64,000 bases of DNA. Origin: Dehalococcoidia bacterium. GTDB taxonomy: Bacteria; Chloroflexota; Dehalococcoidia; Lucifugimonadales; Australimonadaceae. A program made the position numbers and the translations under genes. Positions within the stretch are counted from its first letter, which is position 1, and the number at the start of each line of letters is the position of its first letter. The stretch spans positions 985,076 to 1,049,075 of the forward strand of contig OZ220477.1 in assembly GCA_965116015.1 (NCBI GenBank). The letters run 5' to 3'. Under the pieces are notes generated by a model. That model was not told where the DNA came from, made no database searches, and saw nothing but the letters and a program-made list of their open reading frames with translations. Below are positions 30,094 through 53,681 of the stretch, piece by piece.

Positions 30094-33000
30094 CTAGCGG
30101 CGGTCTTGGCGGGGGGCGGAGCGTTCGCGGACGGTGATTGCGCCGTCGTTGCCGAGCGATTCGTGGAAGGCTACGCGGGTGCGCTTGCCGCCATGAATCT
30201 GGGGTTCGCGAGCGAGTTTCTCACGCAGTAGTTCGAGGGGGCCGCCCGGTTCGCAGAGCTCCGGCGGCAAGCCGAGCACGTCGACGAGGAGGCGGCGGTC
30301 TAGCTCTGCGCGCGATGGGTCTTCGTCGATTTGGTCGAAGGGGAGGAAGCGGAGTTCGGCCATCGCTTCGAATGCGGCTTTTGCAGCGGCGTGCTGCTCG
30401 GCAGTGAGGGTTCGCGTGTCGAGGGCGGGGATGTTGGGGATTCCGGTGACTGTGATGCTTCCCCTACCCGACTGGGTTTTGTTCGCCGCCCACCAGTGCA
30501 TCAGGAGTCCCAGGGTGGAGTTGCACCAGAGGGCGAACGCGTACTCGTGATCAGGATCGTCGAAGATGATCGATGGCCACGCTCTGCCTCCGAGACATCG
30601 GCGCTCGGTCATCGCGACGATAAGGGACTGCGAGTTGAACCGCAGGTCGGCGTTGTAGTGGGCTCGGGTGGCGGTGTCCCATATTTTGGAGACGGCCTCG
30701 CTGTCGACGGGGAGTCCGTCGGAATCCGGTTCGACGGTCAGGCGGCGCTCGCGTTTGTTGTCGTGCGCCCAGAGGACGGGATAGGTGGGGGCGGGAGATT
30801 GGAGCGGGCGTACCCGGAAAGCTCCTCGCGGCGTGTTCGTAGGGCTACCGATCAGGCGATGGACGGGGCCTGTCCTAGCGATTGCGGAGATGGGGACGAT
30901 GGGGAGGTGAATATGGGTAGTTCCGAGGCGGGCGAAGTGGGTTAGCTGTCCGCGAGCGAGGTTGAATGCGGCCTGCGCCAGAGCGCAGTCGGCGATGCCG
31001 ACGAATTGCCAGGGGCCGTCGGGTGGGAGCGGCGCAGAAACGACCGCCTACGGTGCGGTCGTTTCTGCGCCGCTCCCGATTTTTATGGGCTGGAATTCCC
31101 CATCTTCGATGGCGCCGACTGCGCCGTCGGCGCGCATCCGCGTGATTTCGGCTGCGAGGAGTTCAGCTTCTTGGGTGGAGCGCGTCTGCCGGTTGAGTAT
31201 GGCGAATGTGGCGCGATGCTGCGGCAGGTCAGGGTCTCGGCGGGCGATGAGGAGGCACTCGGCCATCCCTGTGTCGGCGGAGAACGAGGCTTCGTCGCTG
31301 CCGGCTCCTGCGATGGTGACGACGGTGATGTCTTCGTACTTTTCCCGCCAGGCGGCGCGGGCGTCGTTCCAGGAGATTCCGCTCATTGCGCTGAGGGGGA
31401 GCACGAGGGCGATCGTTCCGTCGTTGCGGGCTTTGCGGGAGGCGAGCTCGGCGAAGTGCGACGCCAATCCGGCGTAGTCGTTGGAGGGAGCGCCTCTCGT
31501 GAGCGTCTTGACACGCGCGGACATCGCCTCCTGCTCGCGGTGGGTCTTCTCGAAGGCGGCGTATGCGGGTATGGGGACGTCCGCGTGGCTTGCCTCGTGG
31601 TTGGTGGGGCGGGTGAAGGGCGGGTTCATTATCACGAGGTCGAACTCTCGGTGGCCTACCCGCGAGACGAGGTCGCTCACTTCTTCAGGTTCGCGGGCGC
31701 CCGACATCACTGCGGCGGCTTTATCAATCAGGGACGGCTGCACGTGCTCGGCGAGGAGGTCGAGCGAGCCGACTGCGACGGGGCCGCTAGGCTGATCGTC
31801 GAGGGGGACTGTCGAGGGGATGTCGCCGTAGGGCATCGTGAGGAGGCATTCGCCGTCGAAGGGGGTGGCTGGGCGGCTGCCTGCGAGCATTGCGGCGGTG
31901 AGGTGCACGGCCATCGGGAGGACGTCGAGGCCTACGAGTCCGTGCTTCATCATTGGGGCATGGAGGGCTTCGGCGTCGCCGCCGTGGAGTTCGTGGAGGA
32001 GGGACATTCGGTGGTAGGCGGCGGAGAGGAGGGTTCCTGTGCCGCAGGCGAAGTCGCCGATCTGGACGCCTGCGAGGGTGTCGGCGTCGGCCCAGTCTGA
32101 GCCGCCGGGCGGGCGGTGGGTGGGGAGGGCGAGGCCGGCGAGGAGGGCTGCGGCTTCGGGTCGGGTGTAGTAGGTGGCGAGGAATTTGCGGTCGGCGATG
32201 AGTTTCTGGAAGACGACGCCCATAAGGTCGTGGGAGCGGGTTACGCCTCCGGCGACGAGCTGCTGGGCGGTTCGCCAGAGCGCGCCGAGGATTGCGTGGG
32301 AGGTTTGGGCTGGCATCCGGGAGACGATCTCTTTGGCGGTCCAGAAGATGGGCCAGTAATTGACTTTGAGGATGCGCTCCCACTCGAGGCAGAGCTCGTC
32401 GGCGGTGAAGCGGCCGCCGGGGCGGAAAGCGCTCACGGAGCGGATGCTGTGGCGAGGGGCGTCCTCGTCTGCGGGGGAGTTCTCGGGCGCGTTCGGGTCT
32501 TCCGGGACTTGGAAGCTGGCCTCGGCGAGCGATTCGTGGAAGACGAGGGCGTTCGCGACGACGGTCATCGCCATACGGCGCGTCTGGCCGTTGGGGTCGT
32601 CGGCCTGGCCGAGGGTTGTGGCGATCTTGGCGGCGAGTTCGGCGCCGTAGGGATGCCGGCGGGCGAGTTCGTTCGCCGCCAAGTCGACTCCCGCCTCGAA
32701 GCTGAAGGCGAGCGCCTCGATGCGGGGGGCGGGGAGCGTCGCCCGCTGCACGAGCATTGCGAGGTTGAGGACGCTTCCTTTGATCCAGCCGTCTTCGGGG
32801 AGGCGTTCGGGGGGTTGGTCGTTGGGGCGCCGGGTGTAGAGCGCGTATTCGAGGTCGCGGGAGCTGCGGATGCCGCTCCGGAGGGGCTGGCCGTCGAGCC
32901 AGGTTAGTTCGTCGGGGTAGACGAGGGCGATGGCGGTTTCGATGGGGCGTCCGTTCGTTTTCTTTCCGAGGCGGGATCTGGCGTCGGTCTCGGCGCTTGC

Positions 33001-33186
33001 GTAGTTGGCGCGCTCGGCTTCGATGACGACTGGCCATCCGCTGGCGTCTTCGATGATGATGTCGGCGCGTCCGCCGCCGTCGAGGGCGCCGAGTTCTTCG
33101 AATCTGACTGTCCAGCTGTTGCGGAGGTTTCCGAGCGTTTCGCCGAGGGCGGCGTTGATGGTTTGTTCGTGGGTGGGGCCGAGCAT
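30094..33186 (-). pseudogene. type IIG-like fused restriction-modification enzyme (~1030 aa) interrupted by one in-frame TAG at 31048-31050
   Basis: N-terminal nuclease-like RADIII...VVIEAE, YYTRP, DFACGTGTLL (motif I), VIMNPPF (motif IV). I translated 31047 to 30612 by hand; it is open and in frame with the 30094..30612 ORF. Confidence 0.82.
31025..31077. repeat. perfect 23-bp inverted repeat with 7-nt loop containing the premature stop
   Basis: GGGAGCGGCGCAGAAACGACCGC-CTACGGT-GCGGTCGTTTCTGCGCCGCTCCC. Confidence 0.97.
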
Positions 33187-43918: not shown

Positions 43919-45145
43919 ATGGCGTACACCGCCGCTCTGCGCTGCAAGGAGTGTTCCCGCGAGTATCCGATCAGCGCTTTCAATGTTTGCGATTTCTGTT
44001 TTGGTCCGCTCGAGGTGGTCTACGACCTTGATGTGATTGCGGAGCGTACGAGCCGCGAGCGGATTATGTCGGGGCCGCAGAGTTTGTGGCGCTACGCGGA
44101 TTTCCTTCCGGCGGACTACAACCCGGCGATCGATATCAACGCGGGGTTCACGCCGCTGATACGGTCGCGGCGGCTGGCGGAGCGTCTGGGTCTGCGGGAG
44201 CTTTGGATAAAGAACGATAGCGTGAACCCGTCGTATTCGTTCAAGGATCGGGTTGTGGCTGTGGCCTCGGCTATGGCGCTGCAGCTTGGGTTCGACACTA
44301 TCGCTTGCGCGTCGACGGGGAATCTTGCGTGCTCGGTGGCGGCGCATGCGGCGCGGGCAGGGCTCGAGGCGTACGTGTTCATTCCGTCCGACCTCGAGAG
44401 GGGGAAGGTGCTCGGGGCGGCTGTCTATAATCCGACGATGGTGGCTATCGACGGTAGCTATGATGTGGTGAACAAGCTTTGCAGCGAGCTTGCCGACCAG
44501 TATCGCTGGGCGTTCGTCAACATCAATGTGCGGCCGTTCTACGCGGACGGTAGCAAGACGCTGGGGTACGAAGTGGCGGAGCAGCTGGGGTGGCGGGCGC
44601 CGCAGCATGCGGTGGCGCCTTCGGCGTCGGGGGCGATGTTCACGAAGATTCATCAGGGGCTGAAGGAGTTCGAGCGGGTGGGGCTGATCGGCGGGGTGGA
44701 GACGCGGATGCACTGCGCGCAGGCGCGCGGGTGCTCGCCGATCGCTTCCGCGTACGAGAAGGGGAGCCTTACTATCGAGCCTGTGAAGCCGGACACGATC
44801 GCGAAGTCGCTTGGGATCGGGAATCCGGCTGACGGCTACTATGCGCTGAAGACGATCGAGGCGTCGGGGGGCTCGGCGGTGATCGCGGAGGAGCACGAGG
44901 TGGCGGAGGGCATCAAGCTGCTGGCGGAGACTGAGGGGATCTTCACTGAGGGAGCCGGGGGGGTGGCGGTCGCGGGGCTGAAGCGCCTGGTGGAGCGGGG
45001 GGAGATTGGGCCGGACGAGTCGACGGTGGTGTACATCACGGGGAACGGGCTGAAGACTACGGAGATTGTGGCGGATGTGGTGAATCCTGTGCGGATCGCG
45101 CCGACGGTGTCAGCGTTCGAGGAGGCGATGGCCATCCGGGCCTGA
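43919..45145 (+). CDS. thrC: threonine synthase-like PLP enzyme
   Basis: N-terminal CKEC/CDFC, GFTPL, NPSYSFKDR (PLP Lys), CASTGNLA, GSKTLGYE.AEQLGW, ITGNGLKT. Confidence 0.88.
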   Translation: MAYTAALRCKECSREYPISAFNVCDFCFGPLEVVYDLDVIAERTSRERIMSGPQSLWRYADFLPADYNPAIDINAGFTPLIRSRRLAERLGLRELWIKNDSVNPSYSFKDRVVAVASAMALQLGFDTIACASTGNLACSVAAHAARAGLEAYVFIPSDLERGKVLGAAVYNPTMVAIDGSYDVVNKLCSELADQYRWAFVNINVRPFYADGSKTLGYEVAEQLGWRAPQHAVAPSASGAMFTKIHQGLKEFERVGLIGGVETRMHCAQARGCSPIASAYEKGSLTIEPVKPDTIAKSLGIGNPADGYYALKTIEASGGSAVIAEEHEVAEGIKLLAETEGIFTEGAGGVAVAGLKRLVERGEIGPDESTVVYITGNGLKTTEIVADVVNPVRIAPTVSAFEEAMAIRA

Positions 45146-45150
45146 GCGTT

Positions 45151-45396
45151 ATGGCGGCGATGCAGCGCGTGCGGTTCACGTTTCCCGACAGGCTTATCAA
45201 GGAGCCTGTTGTGTATCGGATGGGGCGCGATTTCAGCGTTGTGACGAATATCCGTCGCGCGGATGTTCAGGAGAGTATCGGGTGGGTGATTCTTGAGGTT
45301 GAGGGGGAGGTTGAGGAGATAGAGCGCAGCCTTGAGTGGGTGCGGTCGCAGGGCGTGCGGGTGGATCCTGCGCTGGGCGATTTGGTGGAGCCGTAA
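45151..45396 (+). CDS. NIL-domain protein
   Basis: FTFP..LIKEPVVY...VVTNIRRADV...GWVILEVEG...GVRVDP. Confidence 0.85.
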   Translation: MAAMQRVRFTFPDRLIKEPVVYRMGRDFSVVTNIRRADVQESIGWVILEVEGEVEEIERSLEWVRSQGVRVDPALGDLVEP

Positions 45397-45417
45397 TTTA
45401 TGGGAGGACACGAAACG

Positions 45418-45696
45418 ATGAGCGTTATGGTGCGCATACCTGGGCCTCTGCGGCGCATGACGGACGGCGCCGACAAGGTGCACGTCGACGCGGATGATCT
45501 GAGCGGTCTTATTGCGGCGCTTGAGGATCAGTATCCGGGGATGAGGGAGCGGTTGCTGGACGAGAATGGCGAGGTGCGCTATTTCGTGAACTTGTATCTG
45601 AATAACGAGGATGTGCGGTTCCTCGGGGGACTCGGCGCGGCGGTTAAGCCGGGCGACGAGGTGAGCATTGTGCCCGCGGTGGCGGGCGGGGCGTAG
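45418..45696 (+). CDS. MoaD/ThiS/CysO-family sulfur carrier ending -GGA
   Basis: VRIPGPLR, FVNLYLNNEDVRFL.GL, IVPAVAGGA*. Confidence 0.9.
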   Translation: MSVMVRIPGPLRRMTDGADKVHVDADDLSGLIAALEDQYPGMRERLLDENGEVRYFVNLYLNNEDVRFLGGLGAAVKPGDEVSIVPAVAGGA

Positions 45697-45783
45697 CCTC
45701 CGGTCGGGGCGCCGCCCCGCCGGCGAGGCGCATCGCCGACTCCCCTTCCCGTCCGCGTTGCGCGCGCGGGCGACAGGAAAGTT

Positions 45784-46491
45784 GTGACGCAGCCGCCATC
45801 GAATGACGACAATCTTTATACGGAGCGGGAGCTCGCGGAGATCGACGAGCTGAATCGCGCGACTCGCAGCGACGGGGGGTTTCTGCAGAGCCGCTGGTGG
45901 AAGCGGATCGGGATCGCGTTCGCTGTTGTTATTGTGGCGTCGTTCGCGCTGCCGATTGTCGCCGGACTGGGGAGCGGCGGAGGGGGCGGAGGGTCGTCTG
46001 ATCTTGCGCCGGCGGAGAGTCTTGCTGTTCCGGATTTCGCGTTGGAATCGGCGCAGGGGGGAGTTGTGCGGTTGTCGGAACGGGCGGGGGCGAATTCGGC
46101 TGTTGTGCTTGTGTTCTACCGGGGGTATTTCTGAGGGATCTGCCGCAGCCAGCTCGGTGAGTTGGAGGAGGCTTACGAGGGGATTCGGAAGCTGGACGCC
46201 GAGCTTCTTGTGATCAGTACGGATACGGTTGAGGATGCGCGGCGGATGCGCGATGAGGTTGGGGCGTCGTATCCGGTGCTGGCGGATCCGGACGCGGAGG
46301 CGGCGTCGACGTACGGGATTTTCGATCTGCTTGGGGACGGGGTTGCGGCTCCGGCGACGTTCATTATCGCGGGCGGGGGGCTTGCGGCGAGTCACGTGGG
46401 GCAGGACATCGGGGATCGGGTGTCGGGCGCGGGGATCGTTCAGGCGCTGCGTGAGCTAGCGGGTGCGGGGTCGTCGGGGCGGGCGGGTTAG
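45784..46491 (+). CDS. membrane-anchored AhpC/TSA peroxiredoxin-like selenoprotein (UxxC), Sec at TGA 46132-46134
   Basis: The two track ORFs are in one frame; reading through gives PDFALES...VLVFYRGYF-U-GICRSQLGEL...LLVISTD...YPVLADPD...PATFII; hairpin just 3' of the TGA. Confidence 0.85.
46135..46172 (+). promoter_or_regulatory. putative bacterial SECIS element
   Basis: Stem CCAGCTC-GGT-GAGTTGG (46149-46165) starting 14 nt after the UGA, G-containing apical loop. Confidence 0.65.
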
Positions 46492-46846
46492 GGCGGGGGG
46501 TGATTGACTCTATGGAGTAGTCCATGCCCCGGGATTGGCACCAGAGCTCCGCTGCCCTGCGCTTTCGCTGCACATCCGGGGAATCCGCCATGTTCGCCGC
46601 TTTGACTTCGATGAGGGCGAGCGAGCCATCCGTGTACTCAACGAGGAAGTCGGGGCGGTAGGAATGCTGGCGGTGGCGGTTGTCCACCCAGCCAATCGTG
46701 ATGCGGTGGCGCTTTGTCCACTTGCAGACAGTAGAATCTGCTTCGAGGCGGTCCATCATAAGCCGCTCGTGGCCAGAGTCGTAAACTTCGAAATTCCAGG
46801 CGCTCTTCTTCGGCTGCTCGTAGTTTCCGCGCTCAATTCCCGGCAT
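46364..46846 (-). CDS. TnsA N-terminal-like PD-(D/E)xK endonuclease
   Basis: YDS..E...M..LE.D, YRPDFLVEY.DG...LIEVK; overlaps the res gene stop. The true end may be TAA at 46488 if G6 at 46495-46500 is G7. Confidence 0.8.
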   Translation of the reverse strand: MPGIERGNYEQPKKSAWNFEVYDSGHERLMMDRLEADSTVCKWTKRHRITIGWVDNRHRQHSYRPDFLVEYTDGSLALIEVKAANMADSPDVQRKRRAAELWCQSRGMDYSIESITPRPNPPAPTTPHPLAHAAPERSPRPTPDPRCPAPRDSPQAPRPR

Positions 46847-48836
46847 GCTCGATCATTCCTCCTATGATGTCGGTGCGTCCGGTGAGGAGCTTCTCCATTT
46901 CGTTGAGACGGGGAAGGGCGCGGCGAAGGGCAGCGTCTTCCGCGAAAGCGAGAGGCTCGCCATCAAGAAATCGCTGTTCGAAGTGCTCGCGCAGCGGCTT
47001 GTCCACCCAGCGGCGCATATGGGCGGAATAGCCCGCGTCAATCGTTGCTTGCTCTCCTATCTGACGCAGGCGTTCGCGTATCTTCTCTTTAGCTCCTTCC
47101 GTGGAGAGGGTCTCCTCTTCTGCAGCAATTTCCGCAGGAGCGCTCATGCGCCTCGTCCAGCCCCCTGAGGCAAGCTCTCGGCCAATCACTCCTGAGAGCT
47201 TCACTTCGGTGATTTCCACTGCCTCGGGACTGTATTCGAGCGAGGCAAGCAGGTCAGCCCAATCGCGAGCGGGCTTGGGCGGCCGGGTCACGACAACTGG
47301 GTCCAGCGTGGGTTCGGGATCCGAAGGTTCAGGAATCGTGATGATTAAGTCGGTATTGACGATTTTCTGCGGGGGAGGAGAGTCGCCGCGCTCCTCCCGT
47401 TCGTCGAACTCCTGCTGTACGCCTACGTTCTTGCGAACGCGCGCACCCAAGAGATCCCACAGCCACTCATGATCCAGTTTCTCATGGTCAACCACCGCGC
47501 ATATCTGCGGTTCGTTCGGTGCGATATCCGGATGGCGCACACGGCGCAGGCCCCGCCCGATAATCTGAGGGCCGTAGACCGTGCTTCCGATCTTCCGCAG
47601 CAGCAGGATGACCGCCACTTCGGGCACGTCCCAGCCTTCGCGCAGCATTGCGACGCTCACTACTGCGTCGTACTTCCCGCTACGCCCGATTGCTGCAGCG
47701 TGGGCGCGCGCGCTTTCATCCTCGTCCTCGGTTACGACCAAGGCGCGCAGATTGAACTCATTCGTCAGCACTTGGGCTGCTTTCTTCGCATCCGCCTTGC
47801 AGACCGCTACTACGAAGAGCACGGGGCTGTAGCGCCCTGCCGCATTCCGTCTCGCTTCCTGCAAGCGATTCAGCGCGATGCTGATCTGCTGGCTCATCGG
47901 CTTGGAGTCCGTTACCCATTGCGTAGCGCTCAGGCCGGCCTTGTCCACTTCGTCCCAATCGATTTCTTCCACTCTCCGATGTTCGCCGGTTACCGCATCC
48001 GTATAGGTCAGTTCCACTGCGTCGATGTTTGGCTGGTAAACAACGGGTTTGGCGATGACGCCATCGTTCAGCGCTTTTGGAATGTCGTACTCGTAGATCA
48101 TCTTGCTGTCGGGGGCTTTGCCATCAGCGCGGTCGGGCGTTGCAGTGGTGTCGAGGCGGAACGAGTAGCCTGCGTGCTCGCGTAGCTCCGACAACGTGCG
48201 GTAGTACTCCGGCGCGGGGGAGTTGTGCGCTTCGTCGTTGAAAATAGCGAACGGCGTGCTCTGTGCGCCGAAGAGGGCCCAGAGATTCTCCTGCCCGGTT
48301 TTCGACGATTTGTAGAACTGGTGAATATTCGCCAACACCACGTTGGAGCCGAACAGATCGGTCGCGGAGGCTCTGGAAGATCCTCCCAATGTGGTGAGCG
48401 CAAAGGGGTTCGCGGCAAACGGGGCGCCGGGCGGGATTAGGTTTCGGTCGGTAAATATCTTGCCTTGAGTGAAGTCTGCCTCCAGGCGGTCGCGCACAAT
48501 GAGATTCGGGCAGAGAATGAGGAAACGCTGCACGTTGTGCGCAAGGCGCAGCCAAACCATCGTTGCGGCGATGAGGGCTGTCTTTCCTCCACCCGTTACG
48601 ATGTTCAGCAGCAGTCCGTCTTCCCAGAAATCACGACGCCCAACCTCACGCGAATAGATGACGCGCAGCAAAGCGTCCCACTGATGAGGCCAAAGCCCTC
48701 CCGCCCGAGGCCGCAGTTCGTCCTCAGGGTCGGCGAGAAACCGCAAGTACTCTTGGGTCGCGTCGTGGGATGGTGCGAAGTGGCCAGCCACCCAAATTCC
48801 GAAGTCGCTCTCGTAGCCCTCGAATACGTTCTGCAT
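46833..48836 (-). CDS. type III restriction Res-like SF2 helicase subunit
   Basis: LWPHQ, TGGGKT, CPNLIV.DRL, NDEAH, TATP, MLREGWDVP, QIIGRGLR. Confidence 0.85.
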   Translation of the reverse strand: MQNVFEGYESDFGIWVAGHFAPSHDATQEYLRFLADPEDELRPRAGGLWPHQWDALLRVIYSREVGRRDFWEDGLLLNIVTGGGKTALIAATMVWLRLAHNVQRFLILCPNLIVRDRLEADFTQGKIFTDRNLIPPGAPFAANPFALTTLGGSSRASATDLFGSNVVLANIHQFYKSSKTGQENLWALFGAQSTPFAIFNDEAHNSPAPEYYRTLSELREHAGYSFRLDTTATPDRADGKAPDSKMIYEYDIPKALNDGVIAKPVVYQPNIDAVELTYTDAVTGEHRRVEEIDWDEVDKAGLSATQWVTDSKPMSQQISIALNRLQEARRNAAGRYSPVLFVVAVCKADAKKAAQVLTNEFNLRALVVTEDEDESARAHAAAIGRSGKYDAVVSVAMLREGWDVPEVAVILLLRKIGSTVYGPQIIGRGLRRVRHPDIAPNEPQICAVVDHEKLDHEWLWDLLGARVRKNVGVQQEFDEREERGDSPPPQKIVNTDLIITIPEPSDPEPTLDPVVVTRPPKPARDWADLLASLEYSPEAVEITEVKLSGVIGRELASGGWTRRMSAPAEIAAEEETLSTEGAKEKIRERLRQIGEQATIDAGYSAHMRRWVDKPLREHFEQRFLDGEPLAFAEDAALRRALPRLNEMEKLLTGRTDIIGGMIEHAGN

Positions 48837-48840
48837 TGGA

Positions 48841-50661
48841 TTAACTCACTTCTATTTCCGCGCTGTGCATTCCCTCTCCGCCTTTGTCATCCTGCACTTT
48901 GCAGGCCACTGTGAAGGCGCCAGCGCGTGGGAATGTGTGCTGGGCAGCGAGGGAGGCGCGTTCAGCCCATGGCAGACGCTCCGCGTGGAACGTCCGCCCG
49001 TTGTAGTCGAAGTCCCACTGCACGTTGATGATCTTGGCGTCGGGGTTGTATGTCTGCGTGTCGCTTGCGTCGAATCCGTAGTGCAGCGGCTTGAGCCGAC
49101 GATTCGCAAAGGAGACTTCTGGAGGTTGCACGAACGTGAGGAAATTCGAGTAGTCGCCGCGCTCGGTGGACTGCGAGGCGACGTGCTGCCGGAACGAGGG
49201 GGAATCTATGCGCACTTGCTCCAAGCGAACGAATGCGATGTGGGCAGCTCCGCGCTCGCGGAGTTCTTCAGCGGCTTGAACAGCATCCGGCGCGAATCCC
49301 CACGCCAGCATCACGCCATCGCGTAGTCCTTCCTCGTTTGAATAACGCGGCAACCTCGCAATCGCCTGAGCGAAAGCGTTAACGTCTTCAACCGTAACCG
49401 GCGAGGTGAGAGAGGGAGAGCCAACCCATACAGGCGCCTTTGCGTTCGAGCCTTTGTAGCCGTGGATGCCCTCGTCCGCGCTCGTAAAGCGAGCGTCGTA
49501 GCAGCAAAGCACGAAGCTGCGGAATTCGTCCGGCGGCATCTGCGACAGCCGCTCCGCCTCGTAGATGCCCCACTGCTCTATCGTGAAGTCGGGAGGCGCG
49601 CCCTCTTCCAGGGTGCGCACGATGGCTTGCCGCTTCAGTCGCTCAGCGGTAACTGCTATTGCAACGCGCGATTGGTCGCAACCGAGGAACTTGCGCTGCA
49701 GTCGCTATGCGACTGCAGCGCAAGTTCCGCCACCTACGAAAAAGTCAGCTACGACATCACCCACTTTCGACGACGCTTTAATGATGCGCTCAAGCAATGC
49801 TTCGGGCTTTTGAGTAGGGTAACCAACTCTCTCATTCGCTGTTTGTGACATCGTGTAATCAATCAGTTCATCATTATCCCAGAAGGAGTCTACTGGTTTT
49901 CCTCCTTTCAAGTAGTACCGCTTCCCATCCTGAATGAAGTACTTACCTTTTTCATCTTCTAGATTGTATTTTTCACGCATCCATTTGGACACCGGTCCGC
50001 GTATTTTGTTGTGATGGCTCTTAAGGGACTTAGCGTAATAGAAGATAATGTCATGCTTTCTCGGAAACCATCTCGCTACATTAAACCCGCCCAGTCCATA
50101 GTGCCAGATTACCTCGTTGCGGAAATTCTCATACCCAAACATCTTGTCCATTTCGACTTTGATGTAGTGGCTGGCGTGCCAGTCGCAGTGCACGTAGATG
50201 GAGCCCGTAGGCTTGAGAAGGCGCTTCATTTCGTAGAGGCGAGCGTTCAGCCAGACGAGGTAGCCGTCCAGACCTCCTTCCCAGATATCAGTGAACGAGC
50301 GCTCCTCGTTGTCGTCGCCCCAGAGGACGTTGTAGTTACGGTTGGAGAAGAAGGGCGGATCGATGTAGATGAGGTCAACGCTTTCAGAGGGAATCTGGCG
50401 CATCACGTGGAGGCAGTCTCCCCAGATGAGGCGATTGGGGTCGTGCGGCTCTTCTCTGCCAAGCTTGACGCGCTCGACAATCTGGGTAGGAAGGTTGACG
50501 ACGGGATAGTGGTTGCGGAATCCGGTGTTGCGCGAGTCCCACCCCAGCGGGGTGCGCGCGACAGGCACGTTCCCGAACCTGGCAGGCGGTCGGTAGAACT
50601 CCTCCTGCTGCGGCAGCGGCTCCGCTACGAGGTCGTCAGGCTGCAGTTGCTCATCAGCCAT
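48841..50661 (-). pseudogene. type III Mod-like DNA methyltransferase (~606 aa, C-terminal PKD-like domain) interrupted by one in-frame TAG at 49705-49707
   Basis: LIWGDCL, IYIDPPF (motif IV), YPTQKPEALLERII, DFFVGGGT (motif I) CAAVA*RLQRKFLGCD continues in frame into 48841..49620; PKD-like WDFDY..HTFP.AG.FTVACKVQDD. Confidence 0.85.
49686..49728. repeat. perfect 20-bp inverted repeat with 3-nt loop at the premature stop
   Basis: GGAACTTGCGCTGCAGTCGC-TAT-GCGACTGCAGCGCAAGTTCC. Confidence 0.97.
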
Positions 50662-50775
50662 GGGCGCGCGCCTCCGAGTCCCTAGAATGGGCGAGCGGAT
50701 AGTACCGCACTGGGTATGCCGCTGCGAGGCTTTCCCAATGCGGGATTCCCGCACAACCGGAAGCGCCCCCCTAGC

Positions 50776-52437
50776 CTACTCGGCGAGGTCGCGGACTACG
50801 GTTTGGGCCAGCTCGTAGGGCGCTCCCCGGTGGACGGCGGAGCGACCTGCGGCGCTCAGGAGGATCCAGGAGAGTTGCCCCGCTACGCTCTTTTTGTCGC
50901 GGGTCATTGCTTCGAGGATGGACTCAGGAGCGACTCCAGTGTAGGCGGTGGGGAGGCCGAATCTGGTTAGGAGGGATGTTTGACGCTCGACTAGTTCGGG
51001 CGGGGTTACTCCCAGGAGCGCTCCGAGTCGGGCGGCGCCGGTCATTCCGATGGCTACGCATTCTCCGTGGAGGTAGGCGCCGTATCCAGCGGCGGCTTCG
51101 ATTCCGTGCCCGATGGTGTGTCCGTAGTTGAGCAGCTGACGGCGTCCGCTGGTTTCGCGCTCGTCTTCGGTGACGATGCGGGCTTTGACGGCGACGTTGC
51201 AGGCGATGACTTGCGTGGCGAGTTCGGGGTCGTCGAGGGCGAGGAGGGATTCTGCGCGCTCTTCGTAGAGGTCGACGAGCGAGGCTTCGAGGGCGAGTCC
51301 GTGCTTGAGGGCTTCGGCCCATCCTTCGCGGAGAGCGCGCGGGGGGAGGGTGCGGAGGGCGGAGACGTCGGCAAGGGTCATTATGGGGTGGTGGAATGCT
51401 CCGACCATGTTCTTGGCGGCGAGGAGATCGACGGCGGTTTTGCCTCCGATGCTGGAGTCGACCATTGCGGTGAGGGATGTGGGGACTTGGACGAGGCGGA
51501 TTCCGCGGAGGAGGGTTGCGGCGACGTAGCCTGCGAGGTCGCCGACGACTCCGCCGCCGACGGCGACGATGGCGTCGCGGCGCTCGACGCGCTGCTTCGC
51601 GAGCCATTCGTAGAGCGCGGCGGCGGTGGCGAGGGTTTTGCTGGCTTCGCCGGCGGGGAAGGTGAACAGTCCCATTTCGATGCCGGCGCTGTGGAGCGAG
51701 CGCTGGGCGGCGCGTCCGTAGGGGTGGACGACGTGGCTGTCGCAGACGATGAAGGCTCGTCCGGAGAAGCCTGTTTCCGCGAGGCGGGAGCCAAGTTGCC
51801 CTTCGAGCGTGTTCCACCCGACGAACACGGGGTAGGCGCCGGATTCGACTGTGACAGTGGCGGCGAGCTGCGGGTCGGCGCTCCAGCGGGCGGGGGCGCC
51901 GAGTTTTCTCCAGGCGCGGGCGATCTCGTGCGCGGTCTGCTCGACGCCGAGGTTGTCGGTGGCGATCGTCCAGTGCGCGAGGGCGTAGGCCCACTGACGC
52001 TCGCGCTTGAGCGACTCGATGCGTCCCAGGGGGTCGCCGGCGCGGAGCATAGGGCGGGGCATCGCTTCTGCGCCGTCGTGCTCGGGGATGGCGGAGAGGC
52101 GGCGGAGGATGGTTTCGGGGCGGGCTTCGAGGGCGACGACGAATCCGGAGTCGAGCATTGTGGTTCGGGATGGCGTGAGCATCACGGAGCCGGCGCCGGT
52201 GGAGACGACGACGCGTTGGCGGGCTGCGAGTTCGGCGATGGCGTCGCGTTCGAGGTCGCGGAAGGCGGGTTCGCCGTCGTCTTCGAAGATGCGCTCGATG
52301 GGTTTGCCGGCGCGCTGGACGATGAGCTCGTCGGCGTCGGCGAATTCCCAGCCGAGGAGGCGGGCGAGGCTTCGTCCGGCGGCGGTTTTGCCGGTTCCGG
52401 AGAAGCCGATGAGGAAGATGCGGTCGGCGGTGGTCAT
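50776..52437 (-). CDS. aroB: bifunctional shikimate kinase / 3-dehydroquinate synthase (AroK-AroB)
   Basis: IFLIGFSGTGKT, GEPAFRDLE; then GEASKT, GGGVVGDLAG, VPTSL.AMVDSSIGGKT, LNYGHTIGH. Confidence 0.93.
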   Translation of the reverse strand: MTTADRIFLIGFSGTGKTAAGRSLARLLGWEFADADELIVQRAGKPIERIFEDDGEPAFRDLERDAIAELAARQRVVVSTGAGSVMLTPSRTTMLDSGFVVALEARPETILRRLSAIPEHDGAEAMPRPMLRAGDPLGRIESLKRERQWAYALAHWTIATDNLGVEQTAHEIARAWRKLGAPARWSADPQLAATVTVESGAYPVFVGWNTLEGQLGSRLAETGFSGRAFIVCDSHVVHPYGRAAQRSLHSAGIEMGLFTFPAGEASKTLATAAALYEWLAKQRVERRDAIVAVGGGVVGDLAGYVAATLLRGIRLVQVPTSLTAMVDSSIGGKTAVDLLAAKNMVGAFHHPIMTLADVSALRTLPPRALREGWAEALKHGLALEASLVDLYEERAESLLALDDPELATQVIACNVAVKARIVTEDERETSGRRQLLNYGHTIGHGIEAAAGYGAYLHGECVAIGMTGAARLGALLGVTPPELVERQTSLLTRFGLPTAYTGVAPESILEAMTRDKKSVAGQLSWILLSAAGRSAVHRGAPYELAQTVVRDLAE

Positions 52438-52451
52438 TGGGGCGGGCTCGG

Positions 52452-53681
52452 CTAGCGTGGCGACGGGGCGGAGGCGTCGGAGCGCGGGCCGACCGTCGCC
52501 AGGTAGGCGGCGCAGTTGCGTTTCGTTTCGGCGATGTGGTCGCCGCCGAACTTCTCCATAAGGGCGTCGGCGAGGGTAATCATCGTCATTGCTTCGGCGA
52601 TGACTCCGCAGGTGGGGACGAACGTGATGTCGCTGCGTTCGTAGTGGGCCTGGTCGAGCTCGCCGGTTGTGAGGTCGACGGACGGGAGGGGGGAGATCAT
52701 TGTGGCGATGGGTTTGACGACGGCGCGGATGATGAGCGGCTCGCCGGTGGTCATTCCGCCTTCGAGTCCGCCGGCGTTGTTGGTGCGGCGGGGCCAGGGC
52801 CGGGTCCACCCGCCATTGCTGTTCCGCTCCCATTCGTCGACGGGCTTGATGACATCGTGGACTTTCGAGCCTCGGAGGTCGGCAAGTTCGAACCCTTTGC
52901 CGATCTCGACGCCTTTGACGGCGTTGACGCTGCCGACGGAGGCCATCAGCCGCGTGCTGAGCTTCGTGTCCCACTGGATGTGGGAGCCGAGGCCTATGGG
53001 GAGGCCTGTGGCGATGACTTCGACGACGCCGCCGAGGCTATCGCCGGCGGCTTTAGCGGCGTCGATCTCGGCGGTCATTCGGGCGCTTGCGTCGGGGTCG
53101 GCGCACCGGACGGGGGAGGATTCGACGGCGTCCCAGTCGATGGGTTCGGGAGGGCAGGCCTGCACGCCGCCGATGTTGGTTACGTGGCTGTGGACCTCGA
53201 CGCCGAATTCGGAGAGGAATGCGCGGCAGACGGCGCCGACTGCGACGCGAGCGGCGGATTCGCGGGCGGAGGAGCGTTCGAGGATGTTCCGGGCGTCGTG
53301 CTGGAGGTATTTGCTGATGCCGGGGGTGTCGGCGTGGCCGGGACGCAGGCGGTGGATAGGGGTTACGTCGCCGTCGACGGGGATTTTCGCCATTGTGTGC
53401 GTCCACGGTTTGCCGTCCGGACCGTTGCCGGTGGAGTGGTCGCGGTTCTCGATGAGCATCGCGATGGGGGCGCCGGTGGCGACGCCGTGGCGCACTCCGG
53501 ATTGGAGGACGGCGTAGTCGGTTTCGATCTGCATCCGGGCGCCGCGTCCGTAGCCCATCTGCCGGCGGGCGAGGTCTTCGCGAATCTTCGTTTCGGTTAC
53601 GGGTATGCCGGCAGGCAGCCCTTCGAGCAGGGCGACGAGCGCCGGGCCATGCGACTCGCCGGCGGTGAGGAATCGGACCAC
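52452..53681 (-). CDS. aroC: chorismate synthase
   Basis: FLTAGESHGPAL, RPGHAD, LERSSARES, NNAGGLEGGMTTG, ERSD. Confidence 0.96.
   Translation of the reverse strand: MVRFLTAGESHGPALVALLEGLPAGIPVTETKIREDLARRQMGYGRGARMQIETDYAVLQSGVRHGVATGAPIAMLIENRDHSTGNGPDGKPWTHTMAKIPVDGDVTPIHRLRPGHADTPGISKYLQHDARNILERSSARESAARVAVGAVCRAFLSEFGVEVHSHVTNIGGVQACPPEPIDWDAVESSPVRCADPDASARMTAEIDAAKAAGDSLGGVVEVIATGLPIGLGSHIQWDTKLSTRLMASVGSVNAVKGVEIGKGFELADLRGSKVHDVIKPVDEWERNSNGGWTRPWPRRTNNAGGLEGGMTTGEPLIIRAVVKPIATMISPLPSVDLTTGELDQAHYERSDITFVPTCGVIAEAMTMITLADALMEKFGGDHIAETKRNCAAYLATVGPRSDASAPSPR

Follow-up and report, generated by a model that had tools for sequence, protein, structure and literature searches.

A perfect palindrome with an amber codon at its tip in a Dehalococcoidia methyltransferase gene: a possible enzyme-independent on/off switch

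Is a DNA methyltransferase gene that is broken by one stop codon, placed at the tip of a perfect palindrome, a gene that has been lost or a gene that could be turned on again? This question is raised by the Mod gene in the window (the whole stretch of DNA analysed here, 64,000 nucleotides from a Dehalococcoidia bacterium), whose features are as follows.

48841–50661, minus strand: Mod reading frame, 606 codons plus stop, interrupted by TAG alone (PF01555, E 2.1e-37)
50350–50361, minus strand: catalytic motif IV, Asp-Pro-Pro-Phe, residues 102–105 of P0001
49723–49740, minus strand: SAM-binding motif I glycine loop, Phe-Val-Gly-Gly-Gly-Thr, residues 309–314
49709–49728, right arm in plus coordinates: the 5' arm on the coding strand, encoding Gly-Thr-Cys-Ala-Ala-Val-Ala
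49706–49708, loop of 3 nt: TAT on the plus strand, ATA on the coding strand
49705–49707, minus strand: amber codon TAG, codon 320 of P0001, the sole internal stop of the Mod frame
49686–49705, left arm in plus coordinates: 20 nt, 100% complementary to 49709–49728; it codes, as the 3' arm of the minus (coding) strand, for Arg-Leu-Gln-Arg-Lys-Phe and supplies base 1 of the Leu327 codon
48850–49074, minus strand: PKD-like domain at the Mod C-terminus (PF18911, E 9.2e-06, 26.1 bits against a cut-off of 27)

The palindrome and the gene around it

A reading of this DNA from its letters alone (the sequence-only reading) had claimed a 20-bp perfect inverted repeat in Mod with an amber codon at its apex, and this is what we find: two 20-nt arms, 100% complementary, fill 49686–49728 around a 3-nt spacer, and the coding strand runs in frame through GCA TAG CGA at the loop, the only part that inversion of the hairpin alters. 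From 50754 to the terminal stop at 48841–48843, the TAG at 49705–49707 is the only in-frame stop, and a frame opened at the ATG at 50661 runs to 606 codons when TAG is read through. Only one other pair of inverted repeats of at least 12 nt lies within 48000–51500 (12 nt, 92%). As single-stranded DNA, the palindrome folds with −29.3 kcal/mol, compared to −11.6 ± 2.1 for 200 shuffles (z = −8.4), and of 71 distinct 43-nt segments at the homologous site in other genomes, 70 have only 3–10 of the 20 positions complementary. Such a palindrome is far beyond what chance could plausibly yield.

By its sequence, Mod belongs to the beta class of N6/N4 DNA methyltransferases and is extended at the C-terminus; motif IV (DPPF, 102–105) precedes the predicted target-recognition region and motif I (FVGGGT, 309–314) follows it. 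Residues D102, P103, P104 and F105 as well as G311 and G312 are invariant across 121 aligned sequences, and the final two codons of the glycine loop lie inside the palindrome. Full-length homologues have 590–680 aa; the PF18911 match at the C-terminus is weak and stays under the Pfam cut-off. Among PADLOC profiles, MTase_II matches best (E 7.6e-60) and MTase_III next (E 1.1e-41), while NCBIfam matches remain under their cut-offs. Two further reading frames follow on the same strand.

46833–48836, minus strand: SF2 helicase (ResIII), 667 aa, the helicase half of a split Res
46364–46846, minus strand: TnsA-like / PD-(D/E)xK nuclease ORF, 160 aa, the nuclease half of the split Res (PF08722, E 7.5e-11)

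The helicase frame begins at 48836, 4 nt past the Mod stop, just where the sequence-only reading had placed the start of Res, and the spacing is similarly tight in relatives; co-transcription has not been shown. The nuclease frame overlaps the helicase frame by 14 nt, and the two match one 871-position type III REase model at 135–354 and 738–826. Mod, helicase and nuclease are best described as a putative three-gene, type III-like restriction-modification system: a mod gene directly upstream of res is present (4-nt gap), and the single-polypeptide Res of type III systems, an SF2 helicase followed by a PD-(D/E)xK nuclease, is replaced by two ORFs. Is the split itself a sign of decay? A separate helicase ORF of about 661–669 aa is conserved in 8 other loci, and the nuclease ORF is conserved in other loci as well; because helicase and nuclease are split in all 8 other loci examined, we reject this idea. 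A 518-aa ORF at 44839–46395, which had no family match in profile searches and was not seen next to homologous systems, is not counted as part of the system.

What does the palindrome cost the protein? The family consensus at the site, GGGTTAVVA-Q-RLGRRWIA in our alignment, agrees with the GTTAAVAxxLGRxWIG that the sequence-only reading had given as the approximate usual sequence, and the arms depart from it: among 120 aligned homologues none has the arm-encoded Cys315 (Thr in 109), Gln323 (Gly in 99) or Lys325 (Arg in 102), and only one has Leu327 (Ile in 112). The view that these odd residues are the price of the palindrome holds by sequence comparison. The invariant motif residues G311, G312, R324 and D330–R333 are retained in every palindromic allele, and the protein made in the ON state would carry Cys315, Met320, Gln323 and Lys325. 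At the stop position itself, 114 of the 120 homologues have Gln, so that a simple CAG-to-TAG change needed to be excluded by separate evidence. Of 71 homologous loci, 40 have the codon CAG there and 27 have CAA, and the closest full-length relatives of the window's Mod (L018 and L019, 68–74% identity) encode this Gln with CAA and CAG. A motif pattern search in 82 Mod loci left 11 without the motif, of which 10 were re-examined, the eleventh, L003, being identical in location to L031: five of the ten have DIS for DQS, with Gln at the site, three carry insertions of 16–29 aa at the site, and two are truncated.

Loop states in related genomes

We scanned 401 genomes each of the order, the class and the phylum with a pattern for the site (GGN three times, 15 nt, GCWWWG, 27 nt, Asp-Gln-Ser-Arg), which matched the homologous site in seven genomes, that of the window (G000) included. 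Four have GCA-TAG within perfect arms: 20 bp in the window's genome, 20 bp in G352, 14 bp in G168 and 15 bp in G533. A fifth genome, G197, has a perfect 14-bp palindrome at the same codon with the loop TAT, giving GCT-ATG (Ala-Met), and G214 and G245 have GCT-ATG at the site without the long stem. The homologous site thus occurs with ATA in four alleles, with TAT in three, and with no other loop; no AAG, TTG or other Ala/loop combination that the pattern can detect was found among the scanned genomes of order, class and phylum. The GCT-ATG loop is the exact reverse complement of the GCA-TAG loop, and the third base of the Ala codon tracks the state in all seven alleles (GCT with ATG, GCA with TAG), as is predicted by an inversion and not by point mutation. 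The alleles are related, and this count, like that of the covariation below, overstates their independence. Outside the window, palindromes at this codon are found in four other genomes of the class, with differing arm sequences. In all five palindromic alleles the arms are perfect, and the two loop forms are exact reverse complements, as loop inversion by template switching requires; an identical arm sequence in both states is known at the peptide level only.

The proposal of the sequence-only reading that inverting the loop turns GCA-TAG into GCT-ATG and restores a 606-aa Mod is therefore supported by sequence comparison, and the absence of any flipped allele, which it had named as a refutation, is countered by the TAT loop in the G197 palindrome. 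The codon comparison that it had called for yielded the GCT-ATG palindrome of G197, and it also showed Gln as the usual residue, a point against that reading, with CAA or CAG in the closest full-length relatives. Could the amber codon then be an ordinary nonsense mutation, a single C-to-T transition in an ancestral CAG, to which the palindrome is unrelated? The codons of the homologues and of L018 and L019 speak for it. However, GCA-TAG also sits in the perfect-palindrome loop of three other genomes (G352, G168, G533), whose Mod genes are 55–58% identical to the window's, and every Met allele is GCT-ATG. Furthermore, the window's gene is a mosaic: the 30 codons preceding the site are closest to palindrome-bearing G352 (0.84–0.87 nucleotide identity) and not to L018 and L019 (0.58–0.73). 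We consider a plain nonsense mutation very improbable.

Several candidates from these searches were set aside. One match of the phylum scan, G1006, is due to chance and has no Mod homology, and a metagenome scan with one arm gave a single match, L017, which is likewise a chance hit, unrelated and without a palindrome. In-frame TAG codons in G011 (upstream of the true start) and G004 (outside any palindrome) are unrelated. Genus scans around G352 (22 genomes) and G168 (30 genomes) found no new alleles.

The stem has changed along with the alleles. Four distinct arm sequences occur among the palindromic alleles, and both partners have changed in 9 of the 20 stem pairs; covariation scores 0.400, compared to 0.170 ± 0.029 after shuffling (none of 500 shuffles reaches 0.400) and at most 0.12 with the partner arm slid. 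Not one G-T occurs among the 69 stem pairs of the five palindromic alleles, all of them Watson-Crick, which is more readily reconciled with copying of DNA than with an RNA fold under selection. Template switching alone keeps arms perfect, and the covariation is consequently no proof of selection for a switch. The pairing also bears on the idea that TAG is decoded by pyrrolysine or a suppressor tRNA, or is read through or bypassed via an mRNA hairpin, with the gene always expressed. Some recoding signals do feature stop codons within stem-loops, and the Mod frame is collinear with its homologues across the stop. Against this, selected RNA stems would be expected to contain G-U pairs, of which there are 0 in 69; ARAGORN found no tRNA with a CTA anticodon among the 48 tRNAs of the whole genome, the only one with a stop anticodon being tRNA-SeC; and the reverse-complement Met alleles would be left unexplained. 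We find decoding of the TAG scarcely credible.

Loop inversion and the state of the interrupted genes

How could a 3-nt loop be inverted? Each arm is the exact reverse complement of the other, so that a growing strand, after copying one arm during replication, could anneal to the other arm in the opposite strand, copy the loop as its reverse complement and rejoin its own template via the second arm. Such an inter-strand template switch would not require a recombinase, and its sole sequence change would be that of the coding-strand loop from ATA to TAT, converting GCA-TAG (Ala-stop, OFF, the state of the present genome) to GCT-ATG (Ala-Met, ON, 606-aa Mod). The inverted form retains perfect arms, so the reverse step should be equally possible; the same copying of one arm from the other would preserve a perfect stem even as the sequence of the arms drifts. 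An OFF gene would yield a Mod cut within SAM-binding motif I. In type III systems, Res is inactive without Mod; with Mod truncated, the whole system should hence be silent. That the OFF state also lowers res expression, that the ON form is an active methylase, for which there are no assay data, and that the loop flips frequently enough within one population to act as phase variation are all inferences. Measurements in E. coli show template-switch events to be rare, and a rate for the present element is lacking. On the whole, we think it probable, without being certain, that the palindrome is an enzyme-independent ON/OFF switch operated by template-switch inversion of its hairpin loop; switching within a population has not been shown, as only contigs were available.

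The layout, a variable segment flanked by inverted repeats, could also suggest an intragenic inverton flipped by a site-specific invertase. Yet a 3-nt segment is far too short for the synapsis of two recombinase-bound sites. The genome contains no serine recombinase (PF00239 / Resolvase family), and its three tyrosine recombinases (PF00589) lie at 841–843 kb, 942–943 kb and 1152 kb, the nearest about 92 kb from the element at 1034.8 kb. Intragenic invertons that introduce premature stops are known, but flips of 7 bp are treated as enzyme-independent in the same paper (PMC10028968). By geometry alone, a recombinase-driven inverton is effectively refuted, and we leave it practically no weight.

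What can be said about the loop in the source population? Three runs of one study were found, all in the form of Logan contigs without raw reads, in which TAT and ATA cannot be counted. In run X1, one contig (3254 nt, depth 214) covers 48700–49715 with 0 differences, spanning one arm, the loop in its OFF form and 7 nt of the other arm; it is the only contig across the loop and possibly comes from the same sample as the assembly. The X1 contigs end at 49715 or start at 49709, and by the k=31 graph these breaks can be accounted for in full by a co-occurring minor strain (depth 15 versus 200) that shares the palindrome block and differs in the flanks. They are thus no evidence of two loop orientations. 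Run X2 contains a strain that is about 5–10% divergent, with contigs that stop at 49705 and resume near 49719; the break at 49705 fits loop heterogeneity and low cover equally. Palindromes are troublesome for some library preparations and assemblers, and the loop orientation or the palindrome itself might be an error of long-read assembly or polishing. The X1 contig is identical to the assembly, with the reservation that the sample may be the same, and the design recurs in four other assemblies, on contigs of 92 kb to 3.2 Mb, and in gene calls of several sources, making an artefact most improbable in our view. Of the palindromic alleles seen as DNA, four of five are OFF; a one-way killing event would give the same picture.

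Such an event is at the core of the main rival to the switch: a one-way mutational hotspot, where the hairpin is a by-product of template switching, occasional inversion to TAG kills Mod, and the OFF alleles are young, decaying pseudogenes without any adaptive, reversible switching. Besides the excess of OFF alleles, it can call on the frequent loss of restriction-modification systems, on the lack of read-level support for both orientations in data that consist of contigs only, and on the homologue L087, which is truncated by a rearrangement exactly at the site homologous to the palindrome. In addition, perfect arms and compensatory changes are accounted for by template switching alone (PMC8794818).

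The state of the OFF genes argues against it. Each of the four TAG-bearing Mod genes has exactly one internal stop and no frameshift, the helicase ORFs of these loci have 0 stops, and helicase and nuclease genes are intact. Between OFF alleles, pS is 0.66–0.90, with synonymous sites near saturation, and pN is 0.08–0.29 upstream and 0.20–0.37 downstream of TAG; for G352 and G168, dN/dS downstream of TAG is 0.07 (L084–L086 were left out of this calculation, having several frame breaks in the extracted sequences). Purifying selection acts on both sides of the TAG, and the OFF genes are not in decay. Truncation at this point also recurs. Of 777 short relatives (110–350 aa) of the N-terminal part of Mod, the best 120 include nine clusters that end exactly at Ala319: the window's own, those of G168 and G533, and six new ones, 56–86% identical to the reference Mod proteins compared. 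Two Ala319-ending clusters finish in an arm peptide that is found open and Met-containing in G197 and P0041. The truncation point is a hotspot on this evidence; the six new clusters are known at the protein level only, their stop codon and hairpin being unseen. A one-way process would require a very recent TAG in at least four lineages plus the six truncated protein clusters, despite strong purifying selection downstream of the stop, and the inverted product, by keeping perfect arms, makes the reverse step mechanistically no less likely than the forward one. We regard a one-way hotspot as unlikely, though far from negligible. What comparison among relatives can show is that both loop states exist at this codon, that the stem covaries, and that the OFF genes are intact apart from the stop and are held by purifying selection.

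Known switches, other hairpins and what a loop switch would mean

Several known systems resemble the switch that we propose. In the phasevarions of Haemophilus, Neisseria, Moraxella and Helicobacter, type III mod genes change the length of a repeat tract by slipped-strand mispairing, which shifts the frame. As in these genes, a Mod with Res directly downstream would be toggled between open and terminated by a local, reversible, recombinase-independent DNA change within the ORF, and ON and OFF forms of the same local element exist, here among species (four TAG and three ATG loops). In contrast to them, inversion of a 3-nt loop would make or remove an amber codon without a frame shift, and the hypermutable simple-sequence repeat in ORF or promoter that defines phasevarions is missing: the Mod gene has no simple-sequence tract, Tandem Repeats Finder reporting only a 12-nt repeat in two copies (83% matches) in 48800–50800. 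The hosts also differ, being environmental Dehalococcoidia and not host-adapted pathogens. Type I hsdS shufflons, for example in Streptococcus pneumoniae, exchange target-recognition domains over hundreds of bp by recombinases; they share with the window's Mod inverted repeats in restriction-modification genes that produce epigenetic variants, but alter specificity instead of switching ON and OFF. Minute inversions of chloroplast DNA hairpin loops, reportedly described by Kelchner and Wendel in 1996, are similar in that short loops between perfect inverted repeats flip repeatedly without a recombinase; unlike the present in-gene loop, they are located in non-coding spacers and have, to our knowledge, no known function.

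A 2025 review (PMC11868660) mentions palindromes, hairpins and template switching 0 times. The intragenic invertons of Chanin et al. (PMC10028968) also invert between inverted repeats wholly within a gene, recoding it or adding a premature stop; they are interpreted as the work of invertases and span tens of bp (one example: 57 bp), whereas Mod has a mere 3 nt between repeats that close directly into a hairpin, and no invertase is at hand, so that neither the recombinase nor the length needed for synapsis is present. Closest in its proposed chemistry is template-switch mutation at hairpins (Loytynoja and Goldman 2017, PMC5453318; Monttinen and Loytynoja 2022, PMC8794818), which is documented to produce stems without mismatch, compensatory changes of several bases and inverted loops; loop inversions are reported from bacterial rRNA genes. 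The multi-base changes that preserve Watson-Crick pairing are met in our stem, but these papers, to the extent that their text was at hand, treat a mutational process that shapes RNA genes and contain no in-frame sense/stop toggle of a protein-coding defence gene, recurring across several lineages. Our literature search found no paper joining template switching at hairpins or quasipalindromes to phase variation; most subscription journals lie outside its coverage, and absence is unproven.

Is the Mod palindrome alone in its genome? Across the 2.39 Mb, perfect intragenic hairpins with arms of 14–29 bp occur in four other defence methylase genes (two HmaB-type methylases, one Eco57I/MmeI-type enzyme and one N6_N4-methylase-HNH fusion), and 5 of the 13 longest hairpins of the genome reside in such genes. 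Inverting the loop would toggle a stop in two of the four and recode 1–3 residues in the others, possibly in target-recognition regions. One might suppose that defence methyltransferase genes of these Dehalococcoidia generally use perfect hairpins within the gene as a contingency device that needs no recombinase; this is a tentative idea, possible and on balance doubtful. If true, it would establish a new class of micro-invertons, through which template switching during replication varies restriction-modification and related systems in their ON/OFF state and perhaps in their specificity.

Restriction-modification methylases are known to vary in phase through slippage of repeat tracts and through inversions driven by recombinases, for the most part in host-adapted pathogens. 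The loop switch, if true, would add a third route, enzyme-free and contained in 43 bp, with a hairpin tip that reads Met one way and amber the other. Template-switch mutation, hitherto considered a source of mutation clusters and RNA stems, would then be usable as a genetic switch, and its signature, a perfect in-frame palindrome with a loop of W-W-W followed by G, could be searched for in metagenomes. Likewise, "pseudogene" calls on split methylase genes in environmental MAGs would need re-examination. The presence of the same device in either state across related bacteria suggests, as far as sequences can tell, a new kind of on/off gene switch.

A palindrome with an amber codon in its loop

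The Mod gene of the type III-like restriction-modification system (48841-50661, minus strand) contains one in-frame stop between 50754 and its terminal stop at 48841, and this amber codon sits at the centre of a palindrome:

49686-49728, plus strand: palindrome of a 20-nt arm, the loop TAT and a 20-nt arm, the arms exactly complementary
49705-49707, minus strand: amber TAG in the frame GCA TAG CGA, the coding-strand loop being ATA
Mod residues 102-105: motif IV (DPPF)
Mod residues 309-314: motif I glycine loop (FVGGGT)
Starting 4 nt past the Mod stop: ResIII helicase, 667 aa
After the helicase, overlapping it by 14 nt: TnsA-like nuclease, 160 aa

Read through the TAG as X from the ATG at 50661, the Mod frame comprises 606 codons. 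A match to PF01555 (E 2.1e-37) marks its N-terminal part as an N6/N4 DNA methyltransferase of the beta class, and a weak PKD-like domain lies at the end of the C-terminal 290 residues. Given the position of the glycine loop, the palindrome starts within the SAM-binding motif; the hairpin has a folding energy of -29.3 kcal/mol (z = -8.4). The sequence-only reading had described a perfect 20-bp inverted repeat with an amber codon in its loop inside this motif, in a frame that loop inversion would fuse into a 606-aa Mod and that Res follows after 4 nt: arms, stop, codon count and gap are all as described, and relatives carrying the inverted GCT-ATG exist. Could the TAG be decoded in vivo? This is unlikely, because no tRNA carries a CTA anticodon. 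An assembly artefact is unlikely as well, since the loop is the same in a Logan contig, possibly from the same sample, and four further assemblies have the same design.

In single type III / BPTD_3080-type restriction enzyme models, the helicase ORF corresponds to the front and the nuclease ORF to the rear. A frameshift as the origin of this division was rejected and the split is native: all 8 other loci examined share the order Mod-helicase-nuclease (helicase ~661-669 aa, nuclease HSP 110-133 aa). Directly downstream of the nuclease gene lies a 518-aa ORF (44839-46395) without a Pfam, NCBIfam or PADLOC match, which was not found beside the homologous systems at the 8 other loci looked at. Upstream of Mod, a 732-aa ORF (50776-52974) combines a shikimate kinase with a 3-dehydroquinate synthase domain in one fused protein, its N-terminal ~185 residues being without any match.

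Proposed ON and OFF alleles of Mod

The host genome, G000, is a single contig of 2.39 Mb (64.8% G+C). For the most part, the relatives that a scan of a genome collection brought up are Dehalococcoidia MAGs. The best 120 full-length relatives (522-710 aa, mostly ~590-680; 57-74% identity) carry Gln at the stop position in 114 cases, and Met, Glu and Ala in two each. The family-atypical residues of the window Mod fall exactly in the palindrome arms: Cys315, Gln323 and Lys325 occur in none of the 120 and Leu327 in one, while the invariant G311, G312, R324 and D330-R333 are retained. The arm deviations T to C and G to Q given in the sequence-only reading are among these residues. Among 71 distinct homologous 43-nt segments (from 82 loci; 11 loci fell outside the motif regex), 3-10 of 20 positions are complementary, with the sole exception of locus L032 in genome G197 (16/20). 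There, the same codon lies in a perfect palindrome of 14 bp whose arms have another sequence and whose loop is TAT; the open frame reads GCT ATG (Ala-Met).

At L087 (3960-4200; a Dehalococcoidia MAG), all Mod similarity is lost directly behind Ala-Gln-Arg-Leu-Gly, where the palindrome lies in the window gene; this is a rearrangement or truncation. In L031 (= G058), L043 and L054 and in proteins P0092 and P0095, insertions of 16-29 aa occur exactly at the palindrome site, in the helix following the motif I glycine loop; inserted sequence is tolerated there, or attracted.

Whole genomes were scanned with a degenerate pattern for the Mod site that accepted any A/T loop, giving matches in 6 of 401 genomes of the order, 2 of 401 of the class and 2 of 401 of the phylum; these samples overlap, with G000 in all three, and one of the two phylum matches was discarded as a chance match without Mod homology. 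The homologous site was matched in 7 genomes. GCA-TAG lies within perfect palindromes in four: G000 and G352 (20 bp each; two arm positions differ, both compensated), G168 (14 bp) and G533 (15 bp; another order, and arms different again). GCT-ATG is found in three, in the 14-bp palindrome of G197 and, without a long stem, in G214 and G245. The synonymous third base of the Ala codon tracks the state in 7/7 alleles, GCT with ATG and GCA with TAG, since no other loop or Ala/loop combination occurs among them. At the level of sequence, this linkage reads as the signature of a three-base loop inversion and not of a point mutation.

The stem covaries. In the seven-sequence alignment, 9 of 20 stem pairs are changed on both sides, and the covariation score of 0.400 (0.170 +/- 0.029 in 500 shuffles) is reached by 0/500 shuffles and drops to at most 0.12 when the partner is slid by 1-3 columns; in the five palindromic alleles, every one of the 69 stem pairs is a Watson-Crick pair. 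As the alleles are related, the 7/7 and covariation figures overstate their independence.

From the family consensus, the simplest reading is a single CAG-to-TAG transition, which fits the Gln found across the family and in the window's nearest full-length relatives, L018 and L019. It leaves unexplained why GCA-TAG recurs within the palindromes of three distant alleles and why there are GCT-ATG partners, among them the flipped codon in the perfect palindrome of G197. Furthermore, compared with L104, L018 and L019, the window Mod has a mosaic structure: over the 30 codons that precede the site it is most similar to the palindrome-bearing G352 (0.84-0.87 nt identity), whereas from ~75 codons past it the gene is nearest L018 and L019 (0.71-0.82 vs 0.40-0.58), to which its C-terminal domain is closest. 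The Mod genes of G197, G214 and G245 (L106 vs L107/L108) are nearly identical in their C-terminal part (pN 0.02-0.03), with an N-terminal pN of 0.18 and different middle regions, which suggests that the target-recognition domain has been swapped. Another N6_N4 methylase, encoded by a genome from the same genus (L124; G004:C1:105572-106477), has an in-frame TAG outside any palindrome; this looks like an ordinary nonsense mutation.

The four TAG-bearing Mod genes have exactly one internal stop each, and the helicase ORFs beside them have none. Between TAG alleles, synonymous differences have reached or nearly reached saturation, or exceed it (pS 0.66-0.90), and pN stays low, at 0.08-0.29 upstream and 0.20-0.37 downstream of the stop; for G352 vs G168, downstream pN is 0.200, pS 0.740 and dN/dS 0.07. 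During most of the divergence time, the region behind the TAG has thus been under translation and selection, as far as such rates can tell; the TAGs would then all have to be very recent, unless the state alternates. The serious rival, which we hold clearly less probable than the switch, is a one-way hotspot that merely kills Mod: 4 of the 5 palindromic DNA alleles are OFF, and there is no read-level evidence of loop heterogeneity to set against it.

A further indication comes from truncated proteins, for which a large protein collection was searched with Mod residues 120-319 among entries of 110-350 aa. Among the best 120 of 777 matches, nine clusters end exactly at Ala319, the residue before the stop (the window's own, those of G168 and G533, and six new ones; 56-86% identity to the reference Mod proteins compared), and every other truncation point occurs once. 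Two of these clusters end in the arm peptide that G197 and P0041 show open and Met-containing; the same arm type thus occurs in both states, at the peptide level only, the cluster DNA being unseen. P0123 (Logan; 313 aa), which at 78-82% identity is more similar to the window's N-terminal fragment than any other relative, stops five codons short of the palindrome site, behind a five-glycine run (protein level only), and may represent a divergent strain seen in sequencing runs X1 and X2.

Other perfect hairpins in the genome

In G000, ~60 perfect hairpins have arms of 13 nt or more. Arms reach at least 18 nt in 13, and 5 of these 13 lie within defence methylase genes, Mod included.

G000:C1:527676-527706: HmaB methylase, 14-nt arms, 3-nt loop
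G000:C1:527908-527948: same gene, 18-nt arms, 5-nt loop
G000:C1:594585-594629: Eco57I/MmeI-type R-M enzyme (1128-aa ORF), 22-nt arms, 1-nt centre
G000:C1:778083-778146: DUF1156/HmaB-like methylase (1039-aa ORF), 29-nt arms, 6-nt loop
G000:C1:1210738-1210791: N6_N4-methylase-HNH fusion (651-aa ORF), 24-nt arms, 6-nt loop
G000:C1:952304-952351, 1773864-1773901, 1482690-1482722: long open frames, arms 15-24 nt
Window 31025-31077: 23-nt arms, 7-nt loop, overlapping the 3' end of ORF 31048-33186 (minus strand, 712 aa)

In the Eco57I-type gene, a flip of the central base would change the present AAG (Lys) to TAG; the only homologue checked (G057, 45% identity) lacks ~10 residues at the hairpin, which is therefore a lineage-specific insertion. 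Flips in the methylase genes other than Mod and the Eco57I-type gene would recode 1-3 residues: Leu to Lys (14-nt arms) and Arg-Asn to Ser-His (18-nt arms) in the HmaB-type DNA adenine methylase (976 aa, PADLOC HmaB E 1.4e-272), and three residues without a stop in each of the DUF1156/HmaB-like and HNH fusion genes. That perfect intragenic hairpins are a general device of methylase genes is conceivable but unproven. The three long frames (544, 867 and 963 aa) have no Pfam or PADLOC match, and in a 65% G+C genome their status as genes is not established. The hairpin at 31025-31077 looks like a terminator.

A putative template-switch toggle

A segment of 3 nt cannot be inverted by a site-specific recombinase. 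G000 encodes three tyrosine recombinases, each ~92 kb or more from the element, and no serine recombinase; recombinase-driven inversion is effectively excluded. The mechanism that fits, and most likely the one at work, is an inter-strand template switch at the hairpin: the nascent strand would copy one arm, pair with the complementary arm on the other strand, copy the loop as its reverse complement and go back to its own template. The same switch would copy one arm from the other, explaining both the perfect stems and the simultaneous compensatory changes. Since the inverted product retains perfect arms, the reaction would be symmetric, permitting ON (GCT-ATG) and OFF (GCA-TAG) to interconvert. 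Inter-strand template switching at hairpins has been described (PMC5453318), and hairpin-loop inversions of this kind are reported in bacterial rRNA genes (PMC8794818).

Comparative evidence supports the loop inversion proposed in the sequence-only reading: both loop states occur, the two arms of the stem have changed together, and the OFF genes are undamaged and under selection. That switching takes place within a population fast enough to matter, that the ON protein is active and that OFF silences restriction are inferred, the last by analogy, because Res depends on Mod in type III systems; OFF may also reduce res expression through lost translational coupling. On comparisons of sequence alone, we hold it rather probable that the Mod palindrome is an ON/OFF switch, its flipping within a population being an inference.

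How does this compare with known switches? Phase-variable mod genes are switched by repeat-tract slippage, and type I systems by recombinase-driven hsdS shuffling. In contrast, no repeat tract was found in the window Mod, which has a hairpin loop instead. Intragenic invertons are interpreted as invertase-driven segments of tens of bp (PMC10028968), whereas the present element would invert 3 nt and no invertase is proposed. By term counts, neither palindromes nor hairpins nor template switching come up in a 2025 review of phase variation (PMC11868660), and within an incomplete coverage of the literature we found nothing joining hairpin or template switching with phase variation. Because the known switches differ and no paper was found that joins these themes, we regard the finding as a phase-variable Mod with a new mechanism, population-level switching being inferred. 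It would surprise a specialist that a toggle between sense and amber, only 43 bp long and independent of any enzyme, should recur in Mod genes.
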